Shown here: piece after piece, positions 8,124 through 64,000 of the stretch
Layout of the letters: every line of letters begins with the position of its first letter
Position numbering within the stretch: position 1 is the stretch's first letter
Origin: Escherichia phage PGN6866
Strand: one strand, 5' to 3'
Sequence record: MT127620
DNA: 64,000 nucleotides
Position numbers and translations under genes: made by a program
The notes under the pieces: generated by a model
Seen by the model: only the letters and a program-made list of their open reading frames with translations
The model's database searches: none
What the model was told of the DNA's origin: nothing

Positions 8124-8927
8124 TTGGCTATCGAAACTAATGCGGTAGTTATTACCGACTTAAACCCGCTCTATCCTAGAGACAGGGATTACATCTACGA
8201 AGGGGCGGCTCAAATCCGCCTCATTAAACAAACGTTACAGAACACGTTCCCCAATGTTACAGAGCCAGTTGATATAGATTCTGACACATTTAAGATTATG
8301 TCAGAGAAGCTCAAGTTTACTGGTGATGCAATGGATGTTGGTGGTCTAATGATTAAGAACGTTACTCCGGGAACTGGTGACAAGGATGTTGTTACTAAAG
8401 GCCAGATGGAAGCGTTCATGAAGAACTGGATGGAAAACAAGGTATTCCGTATTGGTGCTTACTACATCACTGAAGAAGATATTAATCCCGGTGATTCCAT
8501 CTCCTTAGGGTTTGGCTCTTGGGCTAAAGTGACTGGTGTCATTATGGGTACTGGTGTAGTAAACCCTGATGGAACTGTTCCTAATGCTCAGAGGGTTGAG
8601 TTCCAAGCAGGTGGTACTGGTGGTCGTGTTTTCAATACCATTCGAACAGAGAACGTACCTTTGATGACAGTTAATGGCTCCAGCTTCTCTCTATCCAGTA
8701 ACACTCACAGCCACAATATGGTATTTGGTCGTGGAGATGCTAGTGGTCATAACAGCTCACCAAACTGGTATAGCCCGGGTGGTGGTTACAGCCAGAGAAC
8801 TGATAATGACACACACACTCATACAATCTCTGGTAGTGTAAGTCTTGGTCGTGATGATATCTCTCGTCAACCTATTAACACTTTGCCACCATTCAGAGCA
8901 GCTCACATTTGGAGACGTATTAGCTAA
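8124..8927 (+). CDS. Tail fibre-like protein with His-x-His motifs (TTG start)
   Basis: NTHSHN and DTHTHT motifs resembling metal-binding receptor-binding tips of tail fibres; RBS ggagg. Confidence 0.55.
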   Translation: MAIETNAVVITDLNPLYPRDRDYIYEGAAQIRLIKQTLQNTFPNVTEPVDIDSDTFKIMSEKLKFTGDAMDVGGLMIKNVTPGTGDKDVVTKGQMEAFMKNWMENKVFRIGAYYITEEDINPGDSISLGFGSWAKVTGVIMGTGVVNPDGTVPNAQRVEFQAGGTGGRVFNTIRTENVPLMTVNGSSFSLSSNTHSHNMVFGRGDASGHNSSPNWYSPGGGYSQRTDNDTHTHTISGSVSLGRDDISRQPINTLPPFRAAHIWRRIS

Positions 8928-8936
8928 GGAGGAATT

Positions 8937-11900
8937 ATGGCGCTGTATCCAATAAAGTCACTAGGTGCTGTAGGCGTTATCGCTGACCAGGCTCCGACAG
9001 ACTTAGCTCCTAATGCTTTCACTAATGCTATAAATGCTCGATTTGTTGAGCAGAGAGTATTTAAGACGGGGGGCAATGCCCCTCTTTCTTATGTAGATGA
9101 AGATAAGGATTTAACCCCTCTGTCTTTCGTTTCTATGCCTTTCGATTATTATAGCGCAGGTAATAGCTTTCTTGTTGTAGGTACTAATAAGAAGTTATAT
9201 AAACTGACAGATGAAAGCTTGACTGATATTAGCCGTAAGGTTGCTACAGTCACTAAGAAGGCTTCTGCCTCAATTAAGATTTATCCAGTTGTTTCTCAGA
9301 TCGTTCCTAAAGAATCAACTATCTCAATGAACTTCAATCAGACCAAGAATCTAGAGGTTTCTCTTCTCCCTGCTGATGCTAACAATACTGATCTTATTTG
9401 GGAGGTTAGTAACTCATCCTATGGAAGTATTACGGTAGACCCTAGTGACTCTAAACTTGCTACTCTAACATCTTTTGAGAAAGAGGGTAATCTTGTAGTA
9501 ACTATCTCTACTGCCAATGAGTCCGTAGTGGCTCAGATTGCTGTTAATATCATCGATGGTGATTCAGGCATCTTCTTGAGTCAAGACACTGTTACAATTC
9601 GTAAAGGAGGGACTACTACCCTCACGGCTGTTACTGGCAAGACTCCTGTAACTTGGTCCAGCAATAACGCTTCTATTGTATCTGTAACCCCTAACGCCAA
9701 CTCTTTAACTGCTGTCATTACAGCGAATGGAGAAGGTAATGTAACAATCACTGCTGACAACGGAACTAAGACTGCTTCTTGTGAGATTGTTTCTATCCCT
9801 CAGATTGATAGTATCTCTTTAAGCCAGTCAGATGTTACTGTGAGTAGAGGTTCTCAGTACATCTTAACTGCTACCCTTTCTCCTGCTAACGCCCCTAATC
9901 AAAATATTACTTGGACCTCTTCTAATCCAAATATTGCAACAGTATCAGGGACTAGTACACAAGGGACGATCAACGCTCTACTTGCTGGTTTTACTGAGAT
10001 TACAGCTACCACTGAAGAAGGTAACAGAGTTGCTGTCTGTACTGTACGTGTGGATTTAGCTGGAAGGACAATGAGAACAAGTGCTATGGCATTTGCCGCT
10101 CCTGTGTCAGAGTCGGTAGAAACTCAAGAGGAAGAAGTAGTAACTCCTCCTGAAAGTGAAGAGACGGTTTATTTTGCTGAGCCTACATCCGGTATAGATA
10201 CGTCAGGGATGTATGAAGGTAACAACTTCTACGACTACTCTAACGTAAACGATATTGAAGGTTTTGCAAGAGCTTCTTTACTAGCAACTCCTTTGTCATC
10301 CGTAACTTTAGATGTTGTCAGCGCCTCTCTCGATGTTGGTGAGGAAATAGTTATCACAGCTACAGCTTCTCCAGAAGGTGATTATTCTTATCAGTGGTCT
10401 GTTGATAAGACTGGTTATGTTTCTACAACTTCAGTTACTGGTAAATCTATTAAACTGGTTGCTCTTCGTAAAGGAGAGATTAATGTAACATGTACTGTCA
10501 GCCAAATGACTCAGAAGGATTACGATGCTTTTGATGACTACCCTTGGTATCACGCTGTTATCTCTAACTGTGCAGTTGCTACAACTCACTATGAAACTCC
10601 TCAGGTAAAAGAATTCGAATCAGAATACTTTGTAGACCTTCCGGGATGGGGTGAGCAAACAGTTGTTGATAATGATGGAAACCCTTCAGTCAAGAAGTTT
10701 AACTGGAAATGTGAGAGAGTAAGATCTTTTAACAACCGTCTTTTTGCTCTGAATATGAGAGAGGCTAATGCTTCTGGTGTTACCACTAACTACCCGCTTC
10801 GTCTTCGTTGGTCTAACTTTGCCAATGAGAACAAGGCTCCTACACTGTGGGACGACTTTGCCTATGATCGAGTTGTGTCTTCGGACTTAGCTTCTAACAT
10901 CGTAGGGCAGACTCAGGCTCTAGAGAATGGATATGCTGGTTACATTGACCTAGCCGATTCTAATGGTAGCTTGATTGATATCCTACCTCTTAAAGACTAC
11001 TTGTTCGTTTATACAGAGTTTGAAACGTATATTGGTTCTCCGACTAATAACACGTACCAACCTCTAATGTTCAAGAAGCTCTTTAACGACTCTGGTATCC
11101 TTGCTCCTGAGTGTGTGGTTGAAGTAGAAGGTAGCCACTTCGTAGTTACTCAGAATGATGTAATCTTACACAACGGTGCAACCAAGAAGTCAATTGCATC
11201 TAACCGTGTCAAGAACATGCTGATTAACGAGGTGTGTCTGGTTAATCCTCTAGCAACTCGAGTACACTTGCATCAGGATAAGAAAGAAGTTTGGGTTCTG
11301 TACGTAGGTCCGGGAGAACCAAAAGAAAGCTTCGCTTGTACTAAAGCTGCTGTATGGAATTATGAGTTTGATACTTGGTCTTTCCGTACTATCCCATATG
11401 CTCAGTGTATTGGTCTGGTTGATCCTCCTGTTTTAGAAAGAGGTCCAATCTGGTCTGACTTCCAAGAAATCACTTGGGATGACCCATCTATTAAAGAACT
11501 CGTTTGGAGAAAGGATGCAACAAACTTTAGACAGAGGGTTACGATAGTAGGTTCATTCTTGAAGGGATTCTATCAAGTGGATGTAGGTGCTCTTGATTAT
11601 TTCTATGACAGGCTAAACGATGTTGTTATAGAGAAGCCTCTGGAAATGAGGTTGGAGAGGACTGGTATAGATTTTGATAATGTGACGAATGAGTGGAATC
11701 AGAAGCATATTAACAGGTTCCGACCTCAGACAACTGGCTCAGGTACTTACATATTTGAAGCTGGTGGTAGTCAATTCTCAAATGAATATGGACACCCACA
11801 CACATCTAAGACATATACGATCGGTGTTGACAGGCATGTCTCGGTGAGACTGAACCATCCATACCTTTTCTATAATGTTATAGATAATGATGTTAACAGT

Positions 11901-56957: not shown

Positions 56958-57212
56958 CTACGAAGTTAAGATGATTTCAGCCTTAATAAACTTCTCACCA
57001 ACAACCATATCACCAGAGATGACACGTAGTTCTCCAGTGCCTAGGTTAACAGCTCCAGCAGGTTGACAACCCCTGCTTTTAGCTGTCATCATATAAACCT
57101 TTTGATTTTGGCACTCTTGGAGAGTGAACACATCTGACATATTTAGATCTCTGACGCGGAGGATTTTTTCCTCTTTGTCTTTAACTTTAATGTTAATAAT
57201 GCTCATATGCAC
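56958..57212 (-). CDS. Small protein, member of 8-copy paralogous family
   Basis: Shared pattern L..L..G.VF ... VNL.TG ... V. Confidence 0.5.
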   Translation of the reverse strand: MHMSIINIKVKDKEEKILRVRDLNMSDVFTLQECQNQKVYMMTAKSRGCQPAGAVNLGTGELRVISGDMVVGEKFIKAEIILTS

Positions 57213-57457
57213 TACTCCTGAACCACTGACATACGAATCATTTCTACCTGATCATCAAGACCTTTAACAGATAACACACCTGTGGAAAGGTTTACCACAG
57301 GAACCCAACCACTGGCTATACGGATGTTACCAGAAGCATTTTCAACCCTCATGTAATACTGAGGAGAGGCACTTCCGTTCTGAACCACGAAAGGGTTTCC
57401 GGGAATGATTGTTTCCAATCGTACCGTATTATCCTTTTTCTTTGGGATGATTTTCAT
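57212..57457 (-). CDS. Small protein, paralogous family member
   Basis: Same family pattern. Confidence 0.5.
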   Translation of the reverse strand: MKIIPKKKDNTVRLETIIPGNPFVVQNGSASPQYYMRVENASGNIRIASGWVPVVNLSTGVLSVKGLDDQVEMIRMSVVQE

Positions 57458-57705
57458 TGCGTATTATCCACCAAAAGTTCTGCTGATACAGGAACAACCT
57501 GACAACGACCAAGAGGGGCTGAAACAACCCCATCACCTAGCCGGAGAGTAGGTATCCGGTTATCTGGGATTTTGATGTTAGGACTTAAGGTAACAATCCC
57601 TTTCACATAAAGATCTTCATTGTGTGGGAATTTAAACACAGAACCATTAGCTAGAGAGCTTAGCTCTACTGCTTCTACTTCCTCTTTCTTATATGTGATT
57701 TTCAT
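57454..57705 (-). CDS. Small protein, paralogous family member
   Basis: Same family pattern. Confidence 0.5.
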   Translation of the reverse strand: MKITYKKEEVEAVELSSLANGSVFKFPHNEDLYVKGIVTLSPNIKIPDNRIPTLRLGDGVVSAPLGRCQVVPVSAELLVDNTQ

Positions 57706-57713
57706 ATTGATTC

Positions 57714-58025
57714 CTATTTAAGTTTGAGGCTAATGTTAAGGTGCATACATGCCCTGTTCTGTACAGCAGCATAACTTCTACCGAGCATGTCAGCCATTCT
57801 CTGAATAGACATGAACCCAGCATTACGGATAAGGAACTGATCTTCTTCTTCAGACCACTTAACTCGGATTGAGGCTCTTGATATTCCGAATTTAGTACAA
57901 GCTGTGTTAACTGCATTCTCCGTTACATTCATAATCTGAGCAACTTCTTGAACCGAGTACTCTTTGATTAGTCTCCGAAGATTTTCAATCTGCATCGGAG
58001 TCCATATAGTTCTTCGTGCTTTCAT
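57714..58025 (-). CDS. Putative transcription regulator with two HTH-like segments
   Basis: YSVQEVAQIMNVTENAV and MSIQRMADMLGRSYAAV resemble sigma region-4 / HTH motifs. Confidence 0.5.
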   Translation of the reverse strand: MKARRTIWTPMQIENLRRLIKEYSVQEVAQIMNVTENAVNTACTKFGISRASIRVKWSEEEDQFLIRNAGFMSIQRMADMLGRSYAAVQNRACMHLNISLKLK

Positions 58026-58053
58026 ACATCCTCCAATTAGCTATTATTCAATT

Positions 58054-58199
58054 TGGTTACAGGTGTAGGATTCGAACCTACGCTCGGACTCCCTAGCCAT
58101 CACCAAAGGAATGCATCCAATGGGCATACGGTCATTCGACCACGGGCGACTGCTTTACCGTAGACTCTGCATTACTGAGTCCCATAAGCTATACCTGTA
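58054..58199 (-). ncRNA. tRNA-like element (147 nt): canonical T-arm, 7-bp acceptor-like closing stem, encoded CCA, ~70 nt extra internal sequence
   Basis: 5' tacaggt pairs with 3' acctgta; T-arm gtagg-ttcgaat-cctac; ends a-cca; no canonical D or anticodon arm found. Confidence 0.3.
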
Positions 58200-58559
58200 A
58201 TTAAAAGGTTGTTCCACATTTACCCTAAAGTTATTGGGGAGTACACTAGCTCTGGGCCACGCTGTAGATATCGGCCTACCTTCCACAGCTAATCAGCTAA
58301 TGTACTCTCCTAATAGTTTATGAATAGGGGGAGGGGACGAATCCTCCCTTATCCTATTAATTAATATTGCATGTAAGACCTAACAATCGGTTGCCTTTGT
58401 AGGAATAAGCGTTATGCTAATCCAGCACTAAACTCCCGCCCCCTTAGTGGGCTGGGTTATTAAAGGGTAACGCCCTTATGGGCTAGTTACATGAATGTTA
58501 GTTTGATAGGAGATCTGAAGTCCTATCTCAAAGGACTCTCGTAAGAATCCTTCACGATA

Positions 58560-58691
58560 TTACTTATTCATCTCTCGTCGGCTATCTCTCCAAGCCAACC
58601 AAGTGTAGGTTTTCAGTTCTTCAAAGTCTTCTGGAGAGAATAGATACTCTTTGAAGGTGTTTCCAAACCACTCTAAAAATTCTTTAGTCAT
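58560..58691 (-). CDS. Small hypothetical protein (43 aa)
   Basis: Hand-translated; TAATG coupling to upstream gene. Confidence 0.3.
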   Translation of the reverse strand: MTKEFLEWFGNTFKEYLFSPEDFEELKTYTWLAWRDSRREMNK

Positions 58692-58933
58692 TAGTCCTCA
58701 TACTTTTTGTTAGGAAGGATGAAATCCCACAGGGCAGCCCACAAGACAAGGGATATAAAAACCACAGCAACGATAGGCCATAGAAAAACTATAATTGCTA
58801 TCTTTGATAGGTTTGGTTCGTTGTTCCACCCTCTGAACTCCACACTACCTTTTACGTCAAGGAATTTTATCAGAGCTGAAACCATTACCATACCTGTCAA
58901 GTAAGTAATCAAGATACTAACAGGACTGATCAC
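58691..58933 (-). CDS. Small membrane protein (2-3 TM helices)
   Basis: Hydrophobic profile. Confidence 0.5.
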   Translation of the reverse strand: MISPVSILITYLTGMVMVSALIKFLDVKGSVEFRGWNNEPNLSKIAIIVFLWPIVAVVFISLVLWAALWDFILPNKKYED

Positions 58934-59090
58934 AAGGTTGATCTCCGCATGTTTTACAGATCACTGGTGAGTAACTACAGGCAGGGTATACTGACACCCC
59001 ATCAAATGTCTCACACCCACAGTCAGGGCATGTACCATTGGATTCCATGTCGTCGTCATCACACACTTCACCGCCACCAAAACAACTCAT
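58917..59090 (-). CDS. Small Cys-rich Zn-ribbon-like protein (57 aa)
   Basis: Hand-translated; CPDCGC...CKTCG motifs. Confidence 0.35.
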   Translation of the reverse strand: MSCFGGGEVCDDDDMESNGTCPDCGCETFDGVSVYPACSYSPVICKTCGDQPCDQSC

Positions 59091-59099
59091 ACAGACTCC

Positions 59100-59321
59100 C
59101 TAATAAACTAAACCTACAGCCTTTGCATCAGGTTGAGGGACTACCTTTGCGCTAGGGCGATAACCATCCACTGAACCGTTCCAAAGATTGACACAGGTGA
59201 TATATCCATCGTTTATGATGTCTGTTTTAATCCAGAAGTGTTTATCATGACCAAAAATACTTCCGTTTGGCAGCGTGGACAGCTCAACGGTTTTAAGGGA
59301 CTGCTTAGAGTCTAGTTTCAT
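59100..59321 (-). CDS. Small protein, paralogous family member
   Basis: VELSTLPNGSIF ... CVNLWNGSV pattern. Confidence 0.5.
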   Translation of the reverse strand: MKLDSKQSLKTVELSTLPNGSIFGHDKHFWIKTDIINDGYITCVNLWNGSVDGYRPSAKVVPQPDAKAVGLVY

Positions 59322-59328
59322 AATAACC

Positions 59329-59577
59329 TCAATTATCGTAGCATGTATTCCAATACATGTAGTTAACGTACGTTCTCGGTTTGATTCCGTACATGATGAA
59401 GTGAGTCTTCTTAATCCTTTCCTTCAGCTTGTAATAAAGGCCATCACTGAAGTTACCAATCTTTACTTGGAAGCGTAAGGAGCGAGCATCCATTCGAAGC
59501 ATAGAGATTAGCTGTACCCTACTACCTCCAGCCATCTCTTCAAGAAGCTTCTTTGTATTCCAATAATGAGCTGTCAT
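59329..59577 (-). CDS. Small hypothetical protein
   Basis: ORF. Confidence 0.5.
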   Translation of the reverse strand: MTAHYWNTKKLLEEMAGGSRVQLISMLRMDARSLRFQVKIGNFSDGLYYKLKERIKKTHFIMYGIKPRTYVNYMYWNTCYDN

Positions 59578-59578
59578 A

Positions 59579-59860
59579 TTACCACTCCTTACCGGTTGTT
59601 GTTACAGAACCACCACACCACTGCGCATCGGATAAGGTTTTAGTCTCCTCATCTACTGCTGCACCATTCAGGCATGAGATACCACTGTAACGCATATCAA
59701 TTTCACCAGAAGGAACCTTCTCGCCCTTATGCCAGCGAGAAACACAAACACCTTCCACTGCTACTGCACACCATCCATCAGGACGGCTCTGTACGCAGCC
59801 TGTAAGGGCTATGCAGACAAGGAAGATACAGATTAAGGATATTACACCACCCCAACTCAT
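59579..59860 (-). CDS. Small lipoprotein (candidate superinfection-exclusion or envelope-targeted protein)
   Basis: Signal peptide with lipobox ALTGC; RBS aggagg. Confidence 0.55.
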   Translation of the reverse strand: MSWGGVISLICIFLVCIALTGCVQSRPDGWCAVAVEGVCVSRWHKGEKVPSGEIDMRYSGISCLNGAAVDEETKTLSDAQWCGGSVTTTGKEW

Positions 59861-60000
59861 AACTACCTCCTATTTGATTTGGTGGACTATCTGGAATCGA
59901 ACCAGAAGCTCACTAAGAAAGTAATTCCCACTGTTATAAAAGCACTTGCCTCAACAGGGATACACTAACTCTGGTGCCGCACCCATACTAGCCCTAAATG

Positions 60001-60076
60001 TGGTGCGCCCTACAGGACTCGAACCTGTAACCAATAGCTTAGAAGGCTACTGCTCTATCCATTGAGCTAAGAGCGC
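60001..60076 (-). tRNA. tRNA-Arg (anticodon UCU), CCA encoded
   Basis: Manual fold: acceptor GCGCTCT/AGGGCGC, D-arm GCTC/GAGC, anticodon stem GTAGC/GCTAT with loop CTTCTAA, T-arm ACAGG-TTCGAGT-CCTGT. Confidence 0.85.
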
Positions 60077-60084
60077 AGAATTAT

Positions 60085-60249
60085 TTAGATCATATCTCGC
60101 TTGGTGATATGACCACATGTTTTACATCGAAGTATATAACGAGTACCTGTGTCTTCTATTTGACCGATCTCATTGTATATGTGTAAACGAATTTCTTTTA
60201 TTGTCTCCCAATCATGGAGATGGAAGAAACGTTTAAACCACTTGAACAT
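60085..60249 (-). CDS. Small hypothetical protein (start trimmed)
   Basis: ORF; C-terminal CKTCGH motif. Confidence 0.4.
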   Translation of the reverse strand: MFKWFKRFFHLHDWETIKEIRLHIYNEIGQIEDTGTRYILRCKTCGHITKRDMI

Positions 60250-60256
60250 ATTAACC

Positions 60257-60508
60257 TCAAGCACAAGCAGGGAGTGTGATGATCTTATACTTACCATCAA
60301 ACTCTCCAAATAAACCTAAGAATGTAGGACTGTAAGTACCAGTACAAACAAACTCATCAAACAGTGCGTTATAACTAGGCTTGATCTTCCAAGCCCATAC
60401 ATAGCCCATCTTATCGATTGCAATGTAACGAGTGTTCAGAGGAACAGTCATCATCACACTGTCAACTTCGATCACTTTAGTGATTGGTGCAGCTTGAAAG
60501 TTTTTCAT
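60257..60508 (-). CDS. Small hypothetical protein
   Basis: ORF. Confidence 0.5.
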   Translation of the reverse strand: MKNFQAAPITKVIEVDSVMMTVPLNTRYIAIDKMGYVWAWKIKPSYNALFDEFVCTGTYSPTFLGLFGEFDGKYKIITLPACA

Positions 60509-60738
60509 TATATAACCACCAATTTTAACGTTGCTTTATATTCTGTGACTGGAGCATCACCTGCAAATGAGAGCATGTGAGCGGGACAAGGTAGTCGCAC
60601 AGCTCGACCACCTGCAATCTTCATATAGAAACTCTTTTTATCATCAAGAAGATTGTCATCCAGTGTGAAGATGGACCCGACGGTCAGATCTCTGTATATC
60701 TTTTTAGTCGGTTTCGAAGAGTCTAGAATTATGTTCAT
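60508..60738 (-). CDS. Small protein, paralogous family member
   Basis: RDLTVGSIF ... pattern. Confidence 0.5.
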   Translation of the reverse strand: MNIILDSSKPTKKIYRDLTVGSIFTLDDNLLDDKKSFYMKIAGGRAVRLPCPAHMLSFAGDAPVTEYKATLKLVVI

Positions 60739-60911
60739 ACTTTACCTTTGATAAAAATGTCATTACCACAGACACAGCATGAACGAACAACAGTAGCGCC
60801 ACGCTGAACGATACGAACCTCTTCCTTAACCAGATTAACACGAGCACCACAGCAAGGAGAGTTGACATAAGAGTAACCAGCTTGCGTATGTTTGATTGTT
60901 TGCTTAGACAT
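60735..60911 (-). CDS. Small Zn-ribbon protein (58 aa)
   Basis: Hand-translated; SPCCG...CCVCG; RBS aagaggaag; ATGA coupling downstream. Confidence 0.45.
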   Translation of the reverse strand: MSKQTIKHTQAGYSYVNSPCCGARVNLVKEEVRIVQRGATVVRSCCVCGNDIFIKGKV

Positions 60912-60950
60912 TTTAGCTTCCTCTTGTTAGTTTAAGTAAGAGTTGTCCCT

Positions 60951-60985
60951 TAATTAAAACAACAAAGGCTGCCCGAAGGCAGCCT
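60951..60985 (-). terminator. Rho-independent terminator (aggcugcc-uucg-ggcagccu + U-rich tail on minus strand)
   Basis: Perfect 8-bp stem with UUCG loop. Confidence 0.6.
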
Positions 60986-60989
60986 CTCT

Positions 60990-61241
60990 TTATTGACTCA
61001 CACCACGAATCAGATGATTCTGTAGCGTCCCGTCTTCTGCATTATACAGGAATGCGAACATCAACTCCTTAGCCACATCTCTTGAGCAATTAAGACACTT
61101 GGAGATTTGCGTTAGTTGCATGTTACGTTCAGTGTGTTCCATCAAGGCAATGCGAATGATTTCTCGCATACCTATTACATGAATTGTTTTAACCGGCATA
61201 GGTCCAATTGCCTTGCTTGTTACGGATGGCTGACATTGCAT
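60990..61241 (-). CDS. Small hypothetical protein (start may be internal Met at 61199)
   Basis: ORF. Confidence 0.5.
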   Translation of the reverse strand: MQCQPSVTSKAIGPMPVKTIHVIGMREIIRIALMEHTERNMQLTQISKCLNCSRDVAKELMFAFLYNAEDGTLQNHLIRGVSQ

Positions 61242-61329
61242 GAATCCAGAAGCCTTCCAGTTTCAGAGCACCATTAGCTACTGCATCCATACGTTCAGGG
61301 CGGTTCATACGTTTGGTTGATATTTTCAT
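61189..61329 (-). CDS. Small hypothetical protein (46 aa)
   Basis: Hand-translated; weak RBS. Confidence 0.3.
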   Translation of the reverse strand: MKISTKRMNRPERMDAVANGALKLEGFWIHAMSAIRNKQGNWTYAG

Positions 61330-61573
61330 ACCTATCTCTCTTTGTTAGTGGAGGCATTATTGCCAGTTGATATAAGGGATAGCCCTAGTCAGTAGACTAA
61401 TCCTGACCGCGTACTCATTGCCGACCCTCTCTGCCTAAGAGTTCAGGTTCTAGAGCTATCTCTTATTCCAACTGGTGAAGACTCCCTACCCCTAGGAAGT
61501 CTCCTGAATCCCAAACCAATATGTACCCCTACATATCAGAAAGTCTTTCGAAAATTAACAGGTTTTAGTCTAA

Positions 61574-61678
61574 CACCGGATGTTCGAGCAAGCTCTCCCT
61601 AGCGGTGTGGCATATGCCTGAATTAATAAGTTAATGAGGAACACCCTCACATAGCCCTCTGATAAACACAAGGGCTAT
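61574..61678 (-). repeat. Conserved composite intergenic element, copy B
   Basis: See copy A at 55686-55799. Confidence 0.6.
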
Positions 61679-61687
61679 AAGTCGGTG

Positions 61688-61906
61688 TTACTTTTGAGTC
61701 AAATACAAATCAGGGCGAGGCATAACAGTGGTTGATGGATTGAAATTACCAACATAACCAGTGCTTAGATTGGCAGCCCTACGTAGTCCATTAGAGAGAT
61801 CGTCATCTAGCATCAGCCAGAATTTTTGATCATAAGAGAAAACATCTCCCCCTTTAAGGTCTTCCACATTTGCATATTTAGGAGTCTCAACTACTTTAAT
61901 TTCCAT
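61688..61906 (-). CDS. Small protein, paralogous family member
   Basis: VEDLKGGDVF ... ANLSTG pattern. Confidence 0.5.
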   Translation of the reverse strand: MEIKVVETPKYANVEDLKGGDVFSYDQKFWLMLDDDLSNGLRRAANLSTGYVGNFNPSTTVMPRPDLYLTQK

Positions 61907-62164
61907 CTACTTACCCTTGTTGGTAATAATAACATCATGAAGAAGAACAATCTTGCTTTTCGAGCTAAGCTTAAGGACTTGCTTATTTGTCAGACTAAGG
62001 ACGACACAACCACCATCAGAAGGTTTAGTCTCCTCGACCTGTGATTTGAACAACTGAACAACCATGTAGAAATCTGCCCGTGTTTCCCTGATTTGGAATA
62101 CATCTCCAATTTTGAGATCACCAACACATAGAGATGGTTCATTTACCTTCAAATCAATCTTCAT
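61907..62164 (-). CDS. Small protein, paralogous family member
   Basis: VGDLKIGDVF pattern. Confidence 0.5.
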   Translation of the reverse strand: MKIDLKVNEPSLCVGDLKIGDVFQIRETRADFYMVVQLFKSQVEETKPSDGGCVVLSLTNKQVLKLSSKSKIVLLHDVIITNKGK

Positions 62165-62414
62165 CTTTAGCCTCTATGTTGGTTATGTGGAGATCACTGC
62201 GTACTTGGCAAACTTCGTCCCGTTTAAAAGGCATGAGCTTTCCAGTTACCACATCAACACAGTTGACATAATTGTCTGCGTACAATGTGTCGGTTCTAAT
62301 GTAAAGAGAATCTTTACGCTCAAATAGAACGCCCGGCTTCATGTTATTTAAGCGAAGCATTGTACGATCGGATTTAATATTAACTTTCACTGTTAATCTC
62401 CTGCTGCTTAGCAA
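62154..62414 (-). CDS. Small protein, paralogous family member
   Basis: LRLNNMKPGVLF ... VDVVTG pattern. Confidence 0.5.
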   Translation of the reverse strand: MLSSRRLTVKVNIKSDRTMLRLNNMKPGVLFERKDSLYIRTDTLYADNYVNCVDVVTGKLMPFKRDEVCQVRSDLHITNIEAKDED

Positions 62415-63376: not shown

Positions 63377-64000
63377 TTACCACTCGTAACTTACACCAGC
63401 GCCCAGAACAGCGTCACTCTCTGAAGTCATTGCCACTGATGCTTTAGTTACTACGTTTTCATTGAAACGAGCACTAACACCAACAGCAAGAGCAGATTCA
63501 CCATCGTAAGCACCTACCCCAGCACCAACAGAGAAAGCAGATCCTTGACTTACTTGCGGGATGTTAGCCATTGCAGCCACGCCAGAAATACCAGCAGAGG
63601 CATGATCACGGTTACGGTCTACTTGTTTTTGCAAAGAAGCAAAACGTTTGTTGGTGGATTGTTCCAGAGCTTTGATGGATTTGGCGTTAGCATTAACGGC
63701 AGACATATCTGCATCTTTACCATTTTTGCCATTTAATCCGTCAACGCCATTCAAGCCTGCTGCACCAGTTAGGCCAGTTTCGCCTTTCTTACCATCTGCA
63801 CCAGAATCACCTTTTTCACCTTGAGCGCCATCTTTACCATCAATGCCATCTTTACCATCAATGCCATCTTTACCATCAATGCCATCTTTACCATCAATGC
63901 CATCTTTACCATCAATGCCATCTTTACCATCAATGCCATCTTTACCATCAATGCCATCTTTACCATCAATGCCATCTTTACCATCAATGCCATCTTTACC
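63377..64000 (-). CDS. Collagen-like (Gly-X-Y) repeat protein with YadA-type C-terminal anchor domain; N-terminus beyond window
   Basis: Frame is open upstream of the track TTG start and reads continuous G-X-Y triplets; C-terminus AGISGVAAMANIPQ...SVGAGVGAY...AVGVSARFNEN...GAGVSYEW. Confidence 0.6.
   Translation of the reverse strand, partial: GKDGIDGKDGIDGKDGIDGKDGIDGKDGIDGKDGIDGKDGIDGKDGIDGKDGIDGKDGAQGEKGDSGADGKKGETGLTGAAGLNGVDGLNGKNGKDADMSAVNANAKSIKALEQSTNKRFASLQKQVDRNRDHASAGISGVAAMANIPQVSQGSAFSVGAGVGAYDGESALAVGVSARFNENVVTKASVAMTSESDAVLGAGVSYEW
63826..64000. repeat. Perfect 18-bp tandem repeat (atcaatgccatctttacc, ~10 copies, continues past window end)
   Basis: Identical units; encode (GKDGID)n on the minus strand. 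Confidence 0.9.

Follow-up and report, generated by a model that had tools for sequence, protein, structure and literature searches.

A family of small phage proteins with a predicted SH3-like fold, represented by eight paralogues in Escherichia phage PGN6866

Eight small open reading frames (ORFs) of Escherichia phage PGN6866 encode ancient paralogues built of a single domain of about 75 residues, for which structure prediction suggests an SH3-like β-barrel. The genes lie within positions 56958-62414 of a 64,000 nt stretch of sequence record MT127620; this whole stretch is referred to below as the window. A first-pass annotation had listed the eight ORFs as a paralogous family of early proteins, and all of them are present on the minus strand where it had placed them. 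They are designated here m1 to m8 in the order of their coordinates. Taken together, the claims that the eight proteins form one family and share one fold are, in our judgement, very close to certain. As to function, the proteins are putative non-enzymatic binders of host proteins, a reading whose chance of being right we put at nearly even.

The region between 56.9 and 62.5 kb resembles the phiEco32-like podoviruses (genus Kuravirus, Gordonclarkvirinae). It is closest to Shigella phage ShigP1 (95% identity over 87% of the region), and phiEco32 itself is 92% identical at a coverage of 79%. All genes of the region are carried by the minus strand in an order that parallels phiEco32 genes 88-119, and the eight ORFs are syntenic with phiEco32 gp95-97, 104, 109 and 113-115. 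The phiEco32 cluster that holds genes 95-115 was assigned to the early class by macroarray (PMC8948821, PMC9965538, PMC4281155). Judged by synteny with phiEco32 and by this published class, the PGN6866 cluster is probably early as well; its early promoters are located past the end of the window.

Eight paralogues of one domain

The annotation had recognized three sequence blocks shared by the eight proteins, and these blocks correspond to conserved columns in an alignment of 141 family sequences. The consensus of this alignment reads L14-x2-L17-x2-G20-[DE]-V-F23, [FY]29-Y30-[MI]-K-T-D34 and V44-N-L-x-T-G49, the conserved columns being L14, L17, G20, V22 and F23 in the first block, F/Y29, Y30, M/I31, K32 and T33 in the second, and V44, N45, L46, T48 and G49 in the third.

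Pairwise identities among the eight proteins are low (12-33%), and for several pairs the BLAST E-value exceeds 0.01, which could be taken to mean that the similarity is due to chance or composition and that there is no real family. The same annotation had named a comparison with shuffled controls as a possible refutation. A profile made from seven members was used to score the eighth, and the score was compared with those of 1000 composition-preserving shuffles of that member. The real proteins scored between 15.5 and 39.6 bits, whereas the shuffles had a mean of about 0 and a maximum of 9.1; for every member, none of the 1000 shuffles reached the real value (z between 10 and 25). The following scores were obtained (in bits): 33.5 (m1, shuffle maximum 8.4), 21.1 (m2), 21.0 (m3), 39.6 (m4, the most central and most conserved member), 15.5 (m5, the most divergent and weakest member, z = 10), 27.8 (m6), 18.2 (m7) and 19.9 (m8). 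A search with the eight-member profile, covering the 801 ORFs in all six frames of the window, detected only the eight (E ≤ 2.4e-22), and no further real ORF scored (next ORF, E = 0.32). All eight gave full-length matches to the broad profile of 141 sequences, with E-values from 1e-7 to 8e-21 (1.1e-7 for m5).

Independent support came from the PHROG families. The eight proteins were assigned to their own PHROGs (m4 and m6 both to PHROG 6570), and they cross-matched the PHROGs of other members with E-values of 1e-4 to 1e-7. Every PHROG matched by the eight is of unknown function, and those matched by their relatives are mostly Kuravirus ones. The predicted fold is also common to the members (see below). 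Chance or compositional similarity was ruled out by the leave-one-out shuffles and the search of the 801 ORFs, and we regard its probability as negligible.

In a rough tree, each member from the window groups with its syntenic orthologues, and the groups are separated by long branches, which indicates that the duplications are old. The expansion of one fold asserted by the annotation thus consists of eight deep paralogues, each having syntenic orthologues of its own in other phages.

Predicted fold and distribution

Two members, m4 and m5, were modelled with AlphaFold2 using family alignments. The m4 model is a five-stranded barrel (predicted local distance difference test, pLDDT, 84.6; predicted template modelling score, pTM, 0.72), and the m5 model (pLDDT 85.5, pTM 0.71) is the same barrel, in which the N- and C-terminal strands are ordered too. 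The two independent models thus agree on one SH3-like barrel, in line with the single small-protein fold that had been proposed from the sequence. The domain is predicted to be an SH3-like five-stranded β-barrel with extra strands at the N- and C-termini; the models appear to settle the fold class and nothing further. In the column profile of the 141 sequences, conserved positions are hydrophobic or glycine and the remaining columns have high entropy. The conserved residues L14, L17, G20, F23, Y30, V44, L46, G49 and V60 would form the barrel core and the tight turns. A catalytic motif was not found in the family column profile.

Searches of curated libraries were negative. In Pfam, no match above noise was obtained for the eight proteins, their 141 relatives or the longer and fused relatives, and NCBIfam and PADLOC gave no match for the eight and gp21 of bacteriophage N4. 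In these three scans no member matched a known effector, toxin, anti-defence or defence family; with respect to anti-defence proteins, Pfam includes several such families, and PADLOC models defence systems, not anti-defence proteins. The family profile retrieved nothing below E = 0.33 from the PDB sequences, the best match being an unrelated β-propeller. Profile positions 20-60 gave weak partial matches to propeller blades (NHL, RCC1 and DFPase/SGL; E = 0.33-1.7 for DFPase; PDB chains 9g65_A and 2iat_A), and propeller-like matches were seen in 10 stretches of P0122 and 8 stretches of P0175. The possibility that the proteins are blade repeats of the NHL, SGL/DFPase or RCC1 type was rejected, since m4 and m5, modelled as monomers, each give a closed barrel with high confidence, and we read the resemblance as convergence of one hairpin motif.

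Small SH3-like β-barrels of known proteins (uL2 C-terminal domain, EF-P/eIF5A domain I, KOW, Tudor, DtxR C-terminal domain, FeoA and the VapX antitoxin) share 4-18% sequence identity with the family. By sequence profile, membership in the Translation-protein SH3-like, KOW or Tudor families was not found, either in Pfam or among the PDB sequences (best E-value as above). Any resemblance to these barrels would be one of fold only and is no sign of family membership or shared function. In a reading that we consider unlikely, the targets of the proteins are nucleic acids or parts of the translation apparatus, and the barrel acts in the manner of the Translation-protein SH3-like, KOW or Tudor domains: by binding rRNA, tRNA, mRNA, the ribosome or a factor associated with RNA polymerase, the proteins would adjust translation or transcription of the host at an early stage of infection. 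A tRNA-Arg gene (anticodon TCT; 60001-60076, minus strand), located between a gp107-like ORF and a lipoprotein gene as in phiEco32, lies within the early region, and in related phages the region contains a RimK-like ATP-grasp enzyme annotated as a modifier of ribosomal protein S6; both are compatible with this explanation. The composition of the proteins argues against it. Their net charges lie around zero (-2.5 to +2.6) and the family is mildly acidic (median isoelectric point 5.3), values that are atypical for nucleic-acid binders, and the column profile gives no evidence of a conserved basic patch. Moreover, 8-10 divergent paralogues are hard to reconcile with one conserved RNA or ribosomal target.

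All relatives detected by a word-indexed search were close orthologues, on contigs about 77 kb long. In an exhaustive profile search, 652 of 1.84 billion cluster representatives reached E ≤ 1e-3. The best 150 of these 652 included 133 newly found proteins of 55-110 amino acids (aa) in which the motif blocks recur. A further nine, 134-162 aa long, consist of two domains in tandem, and three long proteins with repeats or run-on ends were regarded as spurious. P0182 (3223 aa) was likewise not accepted as a domain fusion, as it is probably a run-on gene call. Among isolated phages, N4 gp21 matched the family profile with E = 1.9e-18, and Salmonella phage 7-11 has four family genes (gp110, gp112, gp131 and gp133; E-values 2e-13 to 7e-7). 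In length, motif blocks and predicted fold the N4 and 7-11 proteins agree with the eight, but the two phages belong to other virus families (Schitoviridae and Grimontviridae), and N4 carries one copy. A Foldseek search of viral models (BFVD) found similar small proteins in phages of Proteus, Klebsiella, Vibrio, Yersinia, Erwinia, Morganella and Pseudomonas. For the distant metagenomic member P0137, tblastn against isolated phages gave no match. The RpoS-binding protein gp70.1 of phage PaP3 (131 aa), encountered in the literature, is unrelated.

On the strength of these profile searches, the family appears to be large and widespread in tailed phages, to be absent from the curated libraries and to extend beyond the phiEco32-like group, which had gone unnoticed in the first-pass annotation. 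The genes themselves are not new, since over 100 genomes already list their products as hypothetical proteins. In phiEco32, the same genes occupy the same early-cluster positions (gp95-98, 104, 109 and 113-115), and m1, m2, m4 and m8 are 96-100% identical to their counterparts. The phiEco32 proteins are all annotated as hypothetical and, with their Kuravirus orthologues, are distributed over at least eight PHROGs (12612, 7431, 7832, 6570, 10911, 9955, 16423 and 8365) that are not linked to one another. PGN6866 differs in that it has no gp98 and carries minority alleles at the gp97, gp109, gp113 and gp114 positions. No account of the family was found in the literature on phiEco32 early-gene paralogues, Kuravirus anti-defence, N4 gp21 or SH3-like phage inhibitors. 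What appears to be undescribed in the searchable literature is that these proteins constitute one superfamily, that it has an SH3-like fold, that it includes N4 gp21 and hundreds of clusters from uncultured phages, and that its copy number and alleles turn over. For most of the genes that lytic phages express early there is no explanation; here, hypothetical proteins from at least eight PHROGs merge into one family with a confidently predicted fold, more than 600 clusters and members in the model phages N4 and phiEco32.

Allele exchange and possible roles

The number of family genes varies between phages. One copy was found in N4 (first 30 kb scanned), three in phage LAMP, which lacks five of the eight, four each in phage 7-11 and in a 9.6 kb metagenomic contig (L002), 5-6 in a distant Kuravirus-like contig (L004), at least six in phage PKM.Hi.22.6 (partial region), eight in the PGN6866 window, nine in phiEco32 and ten in phage Ptacy1479. 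The additional phiEco32 copy is gp98, located between gp97 and the gp99 regulator (phiEco32 locus L001, 3808-4038); in PGN6866 the regulator gene is only 8 nt beyond m3 (57705-57714). Gene context was examined for eight distant members; five of the places were on contigs shorter than 4 kb and uninformative, and only L002, L004 and L005 were informative. In the last of these, an unrelated, siphovirus-like metagenomic contig (JGI 3300020112, locus 8764-10450), a 149-aa tandem member with two domains is found, inside a block of small genes, three genes downstream of a Tad2-like (PF11195) gene.

These copy numbers bear on the proposal that the proteins are phage-internal chaperones or adaptors for replication, transcription or lysis proteins, for example stand-alone SH3 proteins that aid the endolysin, as has been proposed for DUF7244 of T1-like phages. 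Stand-alone SH3 proteins are indeed encoded beside lysis genes in Drexlerviridae (PMC13164509), gp110 and gp112 of phage 7-11 flank the endolysin gp111, one Kuravirus homologue found with Foldseek in BFVD bears the database name 'Endolysin', and m4, m2, m1 and m8 are strongly conserved across Kuravirus. DUF7244 resembles the eight in being a small single-domain protein of the SH3 clan that is encoded by a separate gene and is widespread without being universal (PMC13164509). It is, however, a single-copy protein of the lysis module, whereas the eight are multi-copy proteins of an early cluster, and they matched neither DUF7244 nor an SH3 family in Pfam even at E-values up to 1. None of the eight genes (0/8) adjoins a lysis gene in the window, all of them being in the early cluster, and none of the proteins has a signal peptide or a membrane segment (grand average of hydropathy, GRAVY, -0.5 to 0.1). 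The variation between 1 and 10 copies and the five members missing from LAMP also argue against core functions for most members. Overall, we find a phage-internal role quite improbable.

The annotation had called the family diversified, and this holds both for the 1-10 copies per phage and for m3, m5, m6 and m7, which are very divergent alleles in genomes that are otherwise 90-100% identical. In comparison with phiEco32, 17 of 20 neighbouring genes are 91-100% identical, and the values for m3, m5, m6 and m7 are 65%, 29%, 68% and 54%, respectively. The pattern is clearer across 50,697 phage records, in which allele frequencies were counted, than in rank tests. Two neighbouring genes served as controls: the gp108-like gene had 96 matching records (74 at ≥80% identity) and the gp116-like gene 98 (70 at ≥80%). 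For m4, 63 of the 71 matching records were at ≥80% identity. This level was reached by 21 of 70 records for m7, of which 47 were below 60%, i.e. there are two allele classes, by 4 of 70 for m6, by 2 of 39 for m3 and by none of the four for m5, all of which were 66% identical. The divergent alleles have synonymous divergence (dS) values of 1-2, i.e. saturated, as opposed to 0.1-0.3 in the flanking genes, which indicates that they came from distant lineages by recombination and not by fast local evolution. Positive selection in situ was rejected as their source, dS being saturated and the ratio of nonsynonymous to synonymous divergence (dN/dS) being below 0.4. Related phages thus exchange members of the family as whole divergent alleles. 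With 3-10 copies within one genus and very different alleles at several positions, this natural variation could be used experimentally, and the BASEL collection includes Kuravirus isolates able to plate on E. coli K-12.

Mosaic exchange in the region extends beyond the family, as the gp99-like gene (57714-58025, minus strand), which encodes a 'D5-like transcriptional regulator', is also mosaic: its product is 64% identical to phiEco32 gp99 and 97% identical to the Ptacy1479 copy.

Such swapping of alleles in the manner of cassettes, the individual dispensability of members across natural genomes and the lack of a known function for any of them would also be expected if the genes were mostly dispensable passengers of recombination, a mosaic filler kept by linkage that has no specific target. 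We consider this very unlikely. Each member shows dN/dS values of 0.05-0.4, indicating purifying selection, even between alleles with saturated synonymous sites; the fold-defining residues are kept across hundreds of clusters and several phage families; and Shine-Dalgarno sequences and overlaps of the translational-coupling type are retained.

The reading that we favour is that of non-enzymatic binders of host proteins. Conservation of core and turn positions, variability of the other positions and the lack of a catalytic motif suggest a stable scaffold with a freely varying surface, as would be suited to such a binder. An accessory role directed against strain-variable host components, e.g. 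those of defence or stress responses, is in keeping with four features: the genes are placed early, they vary in copy number, natural genomes can dispense with single members, and alleles are exchanged like cassettes. The host-takeover or anti-defence effectors envisaged in the first-pass annotation can, on these sequence-based grounds, reasonably be suggested, which does not make them a finding. In the proposed mechanism, early promoters dependent on host RNA polymerase and located upstream of the cluster would direct transcription of the genes, and the products would work as soluble, stoichiometric binders that have no enzymatic activity. Through the variable faces of its strands and its variable loops, each paralogue would have its own partner, most likely a host protein and possibly a component of a defence or stress response, and phages would carry different sets depending on the hosts they encounter.

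A precedent for such a mode of action is Nip of Bacillus phage Phi3T, which has predicted SH3-like domains and neutralizes the defence protein SpbK by binding to it (PMC11984713). The likeness is in the mode of action; Nip is a 279-aa protein of a temperate Bacillus phage and consists of two SH3-like domains and an HU-like dimerization domain (PMC11984713). Gordonclarkvirinae are reported to be unusually resistant to restriction and to withstand nearly all defence systems tested, although no inhibitor is known for them (PMC11990801). A multi-copy family of early binders would be an obvious candidate to consider here.

Several points weigh against the role as host-protein binders. Literature searches gave no partner, phenotype, interaction or experimental data for any member, N4 gp21 included, and the early expression of the PGN6866 genes is itself deduced from synteny with phiEco32. 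The gene for N4 gp21 presumably lies in the middle-gene region of N4, not the early one, which would mean that the family is not strictly bound to early expression. The Tad2-like neighbour (see above) is one isolated case. When genomes were compared in pairs, the excess divergence of family genes over their neighbours was marginal (Mann-Whitney p = 0.07 and 0.03), and a few neighbours outside the family, such as the gp99-like regulator, are likewise mosaic. A direct signature of positive selection is also lacking, because dS is saturated and dN/dS is below 1 in the divergent alleles.

A bolder form of the binder proposal, which we regard as doubtful, is that the family constitutes a repertoire in which one SH3-like scaffold carries many specificities, each blocking a different host immunity or stress protein, and that the cassettes are traded among Kuravirus, N4-like, 7-11-like and uncultured phages. 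If true, it would be among the largest anti-defence superfamilies, one that was overlooked through the unlinked PHROGs and the absence from Pfam. Should the proteins have housekeeping roles instead, a name and a fold would still be gained for a large block of phage dark matter.

The genes and their surroundings

All features described in this section are on the minus strand. The ORF boundaries of the first-pass annotation stood for six of the eight genes and were revised at the starts of m1, where ATG at 57206 most likely replaces GTG at 57212, and of m8, where GTG at 62390 most likely replaces TTG at 62414. The revised starts were preferred because they have good Shine-Dalgarno sequences (GGAG 9 nt upstream for m1 and AGGAG 7 nt upstream for m8), and because the resulting lengths (82 and 78 aa) agree with those of the annotated phiEco32 gp95 and gp115.

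m1 (56958-57206; PHROG 12612) is the orthologue of phiEco32 gp95 and is 100% identical to it at the amino acid level. m2 (57212-57457, 81 aa; PHROG 7431), the gp96 orthologue, is 98% identical to the phiEco32 and 72% identical to the LAMP protein (dN/dS 0.07-0.26), and its start overlaps the stop of m3 (ATGA). m3 (57454-57705, 83 aa; PHROG 7832) is a minority allele in the gp97 position, with a dS of 1.4 relative to phiEco32. m4 (59100-59321, 73 aa; PHROG 6570) is the orthologue of gp104, and m5 (60508-60738, 76 aa; PHROG 10911) is a rare allele in the gp109 position. m6 (61688-61906, 72 aa; PHROG 6570) is in the gp113 position, and its start abuts the stop of m7. m7 (61907-62164, 85 aa; PHROG 9955), in the gp114 position, contains an inter-strand insertion, and its reading frame shares 11 nt with m8. 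m8 (62154-62390; PHROG 16423), the gp115 orthologue, is 96-100% identical to the phiEco32 and Ptacy1479 proteins (dN/dS ≤ 0.05) and has an 11-nt overlap with the upstream gp116-like gene. This packing (ATGA overlap of m3 and m2, abutting m7 and m6, 11-nt overlaps between the gp116-like gene and m8 and between m8 and m7) is in the style of translational coupling. Their Shine-Dalgarno sequences, and stops and starts that overlap or abut, mark the eight ORFs as real genes that look translated.

A strong terminator-like hairpin is located within the early cluster at 60964-60987, with a gp111-like and a gp110-like ORF on either side. It has a 10-bp stem with 6 GC pairs, a UUCG loop and a T-rich tail, and the 78 nt around it are 96% identical in phiEco32. 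The hairpin could separate the expression of m6-m8 kinetically from that of m1-m5.

Two non-coding segments of the region are highly conserved. The first (61330-61687) comprises 358 nt between m6 and the gp112-like gene and contains no plausible ORF. It is 93-98% identical in phiEco32, Ptacy1479 and, in part, LAMP, which exceeds the conservation of several flanking genes. The predicted RNA fold of the segment is more stable than that of its shuffled versions (z = -3.6; 0 of 100 shuffles equally stable), and an Rfam search gave no match. The segment possibly represents a structured RNA or a regulatory region. The second (58320-58559), 240 nt long, is situated upstream of the gene for the gp99-like regulator; its identity to the corresponding sequences of phiEco32, Ptacy1479 and LAMP is 98%, and its RNA fold has a z of -3.4. 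The adjoining 58026-58319 has no counterpart in these three phages, phiEco32 having gp100 in its place.

Near the end of the window (63377-63993), a coding region for glycine-rich, collagen-like repeats of the NGKNGKDG type continues past the window end, and in a different frame the repeat yields a spurious ORF of 'MALMVK' repeats. Its homologue is phiEco32 gp119, which carries a tail-protein annotation despite its location on the side of the early strand.

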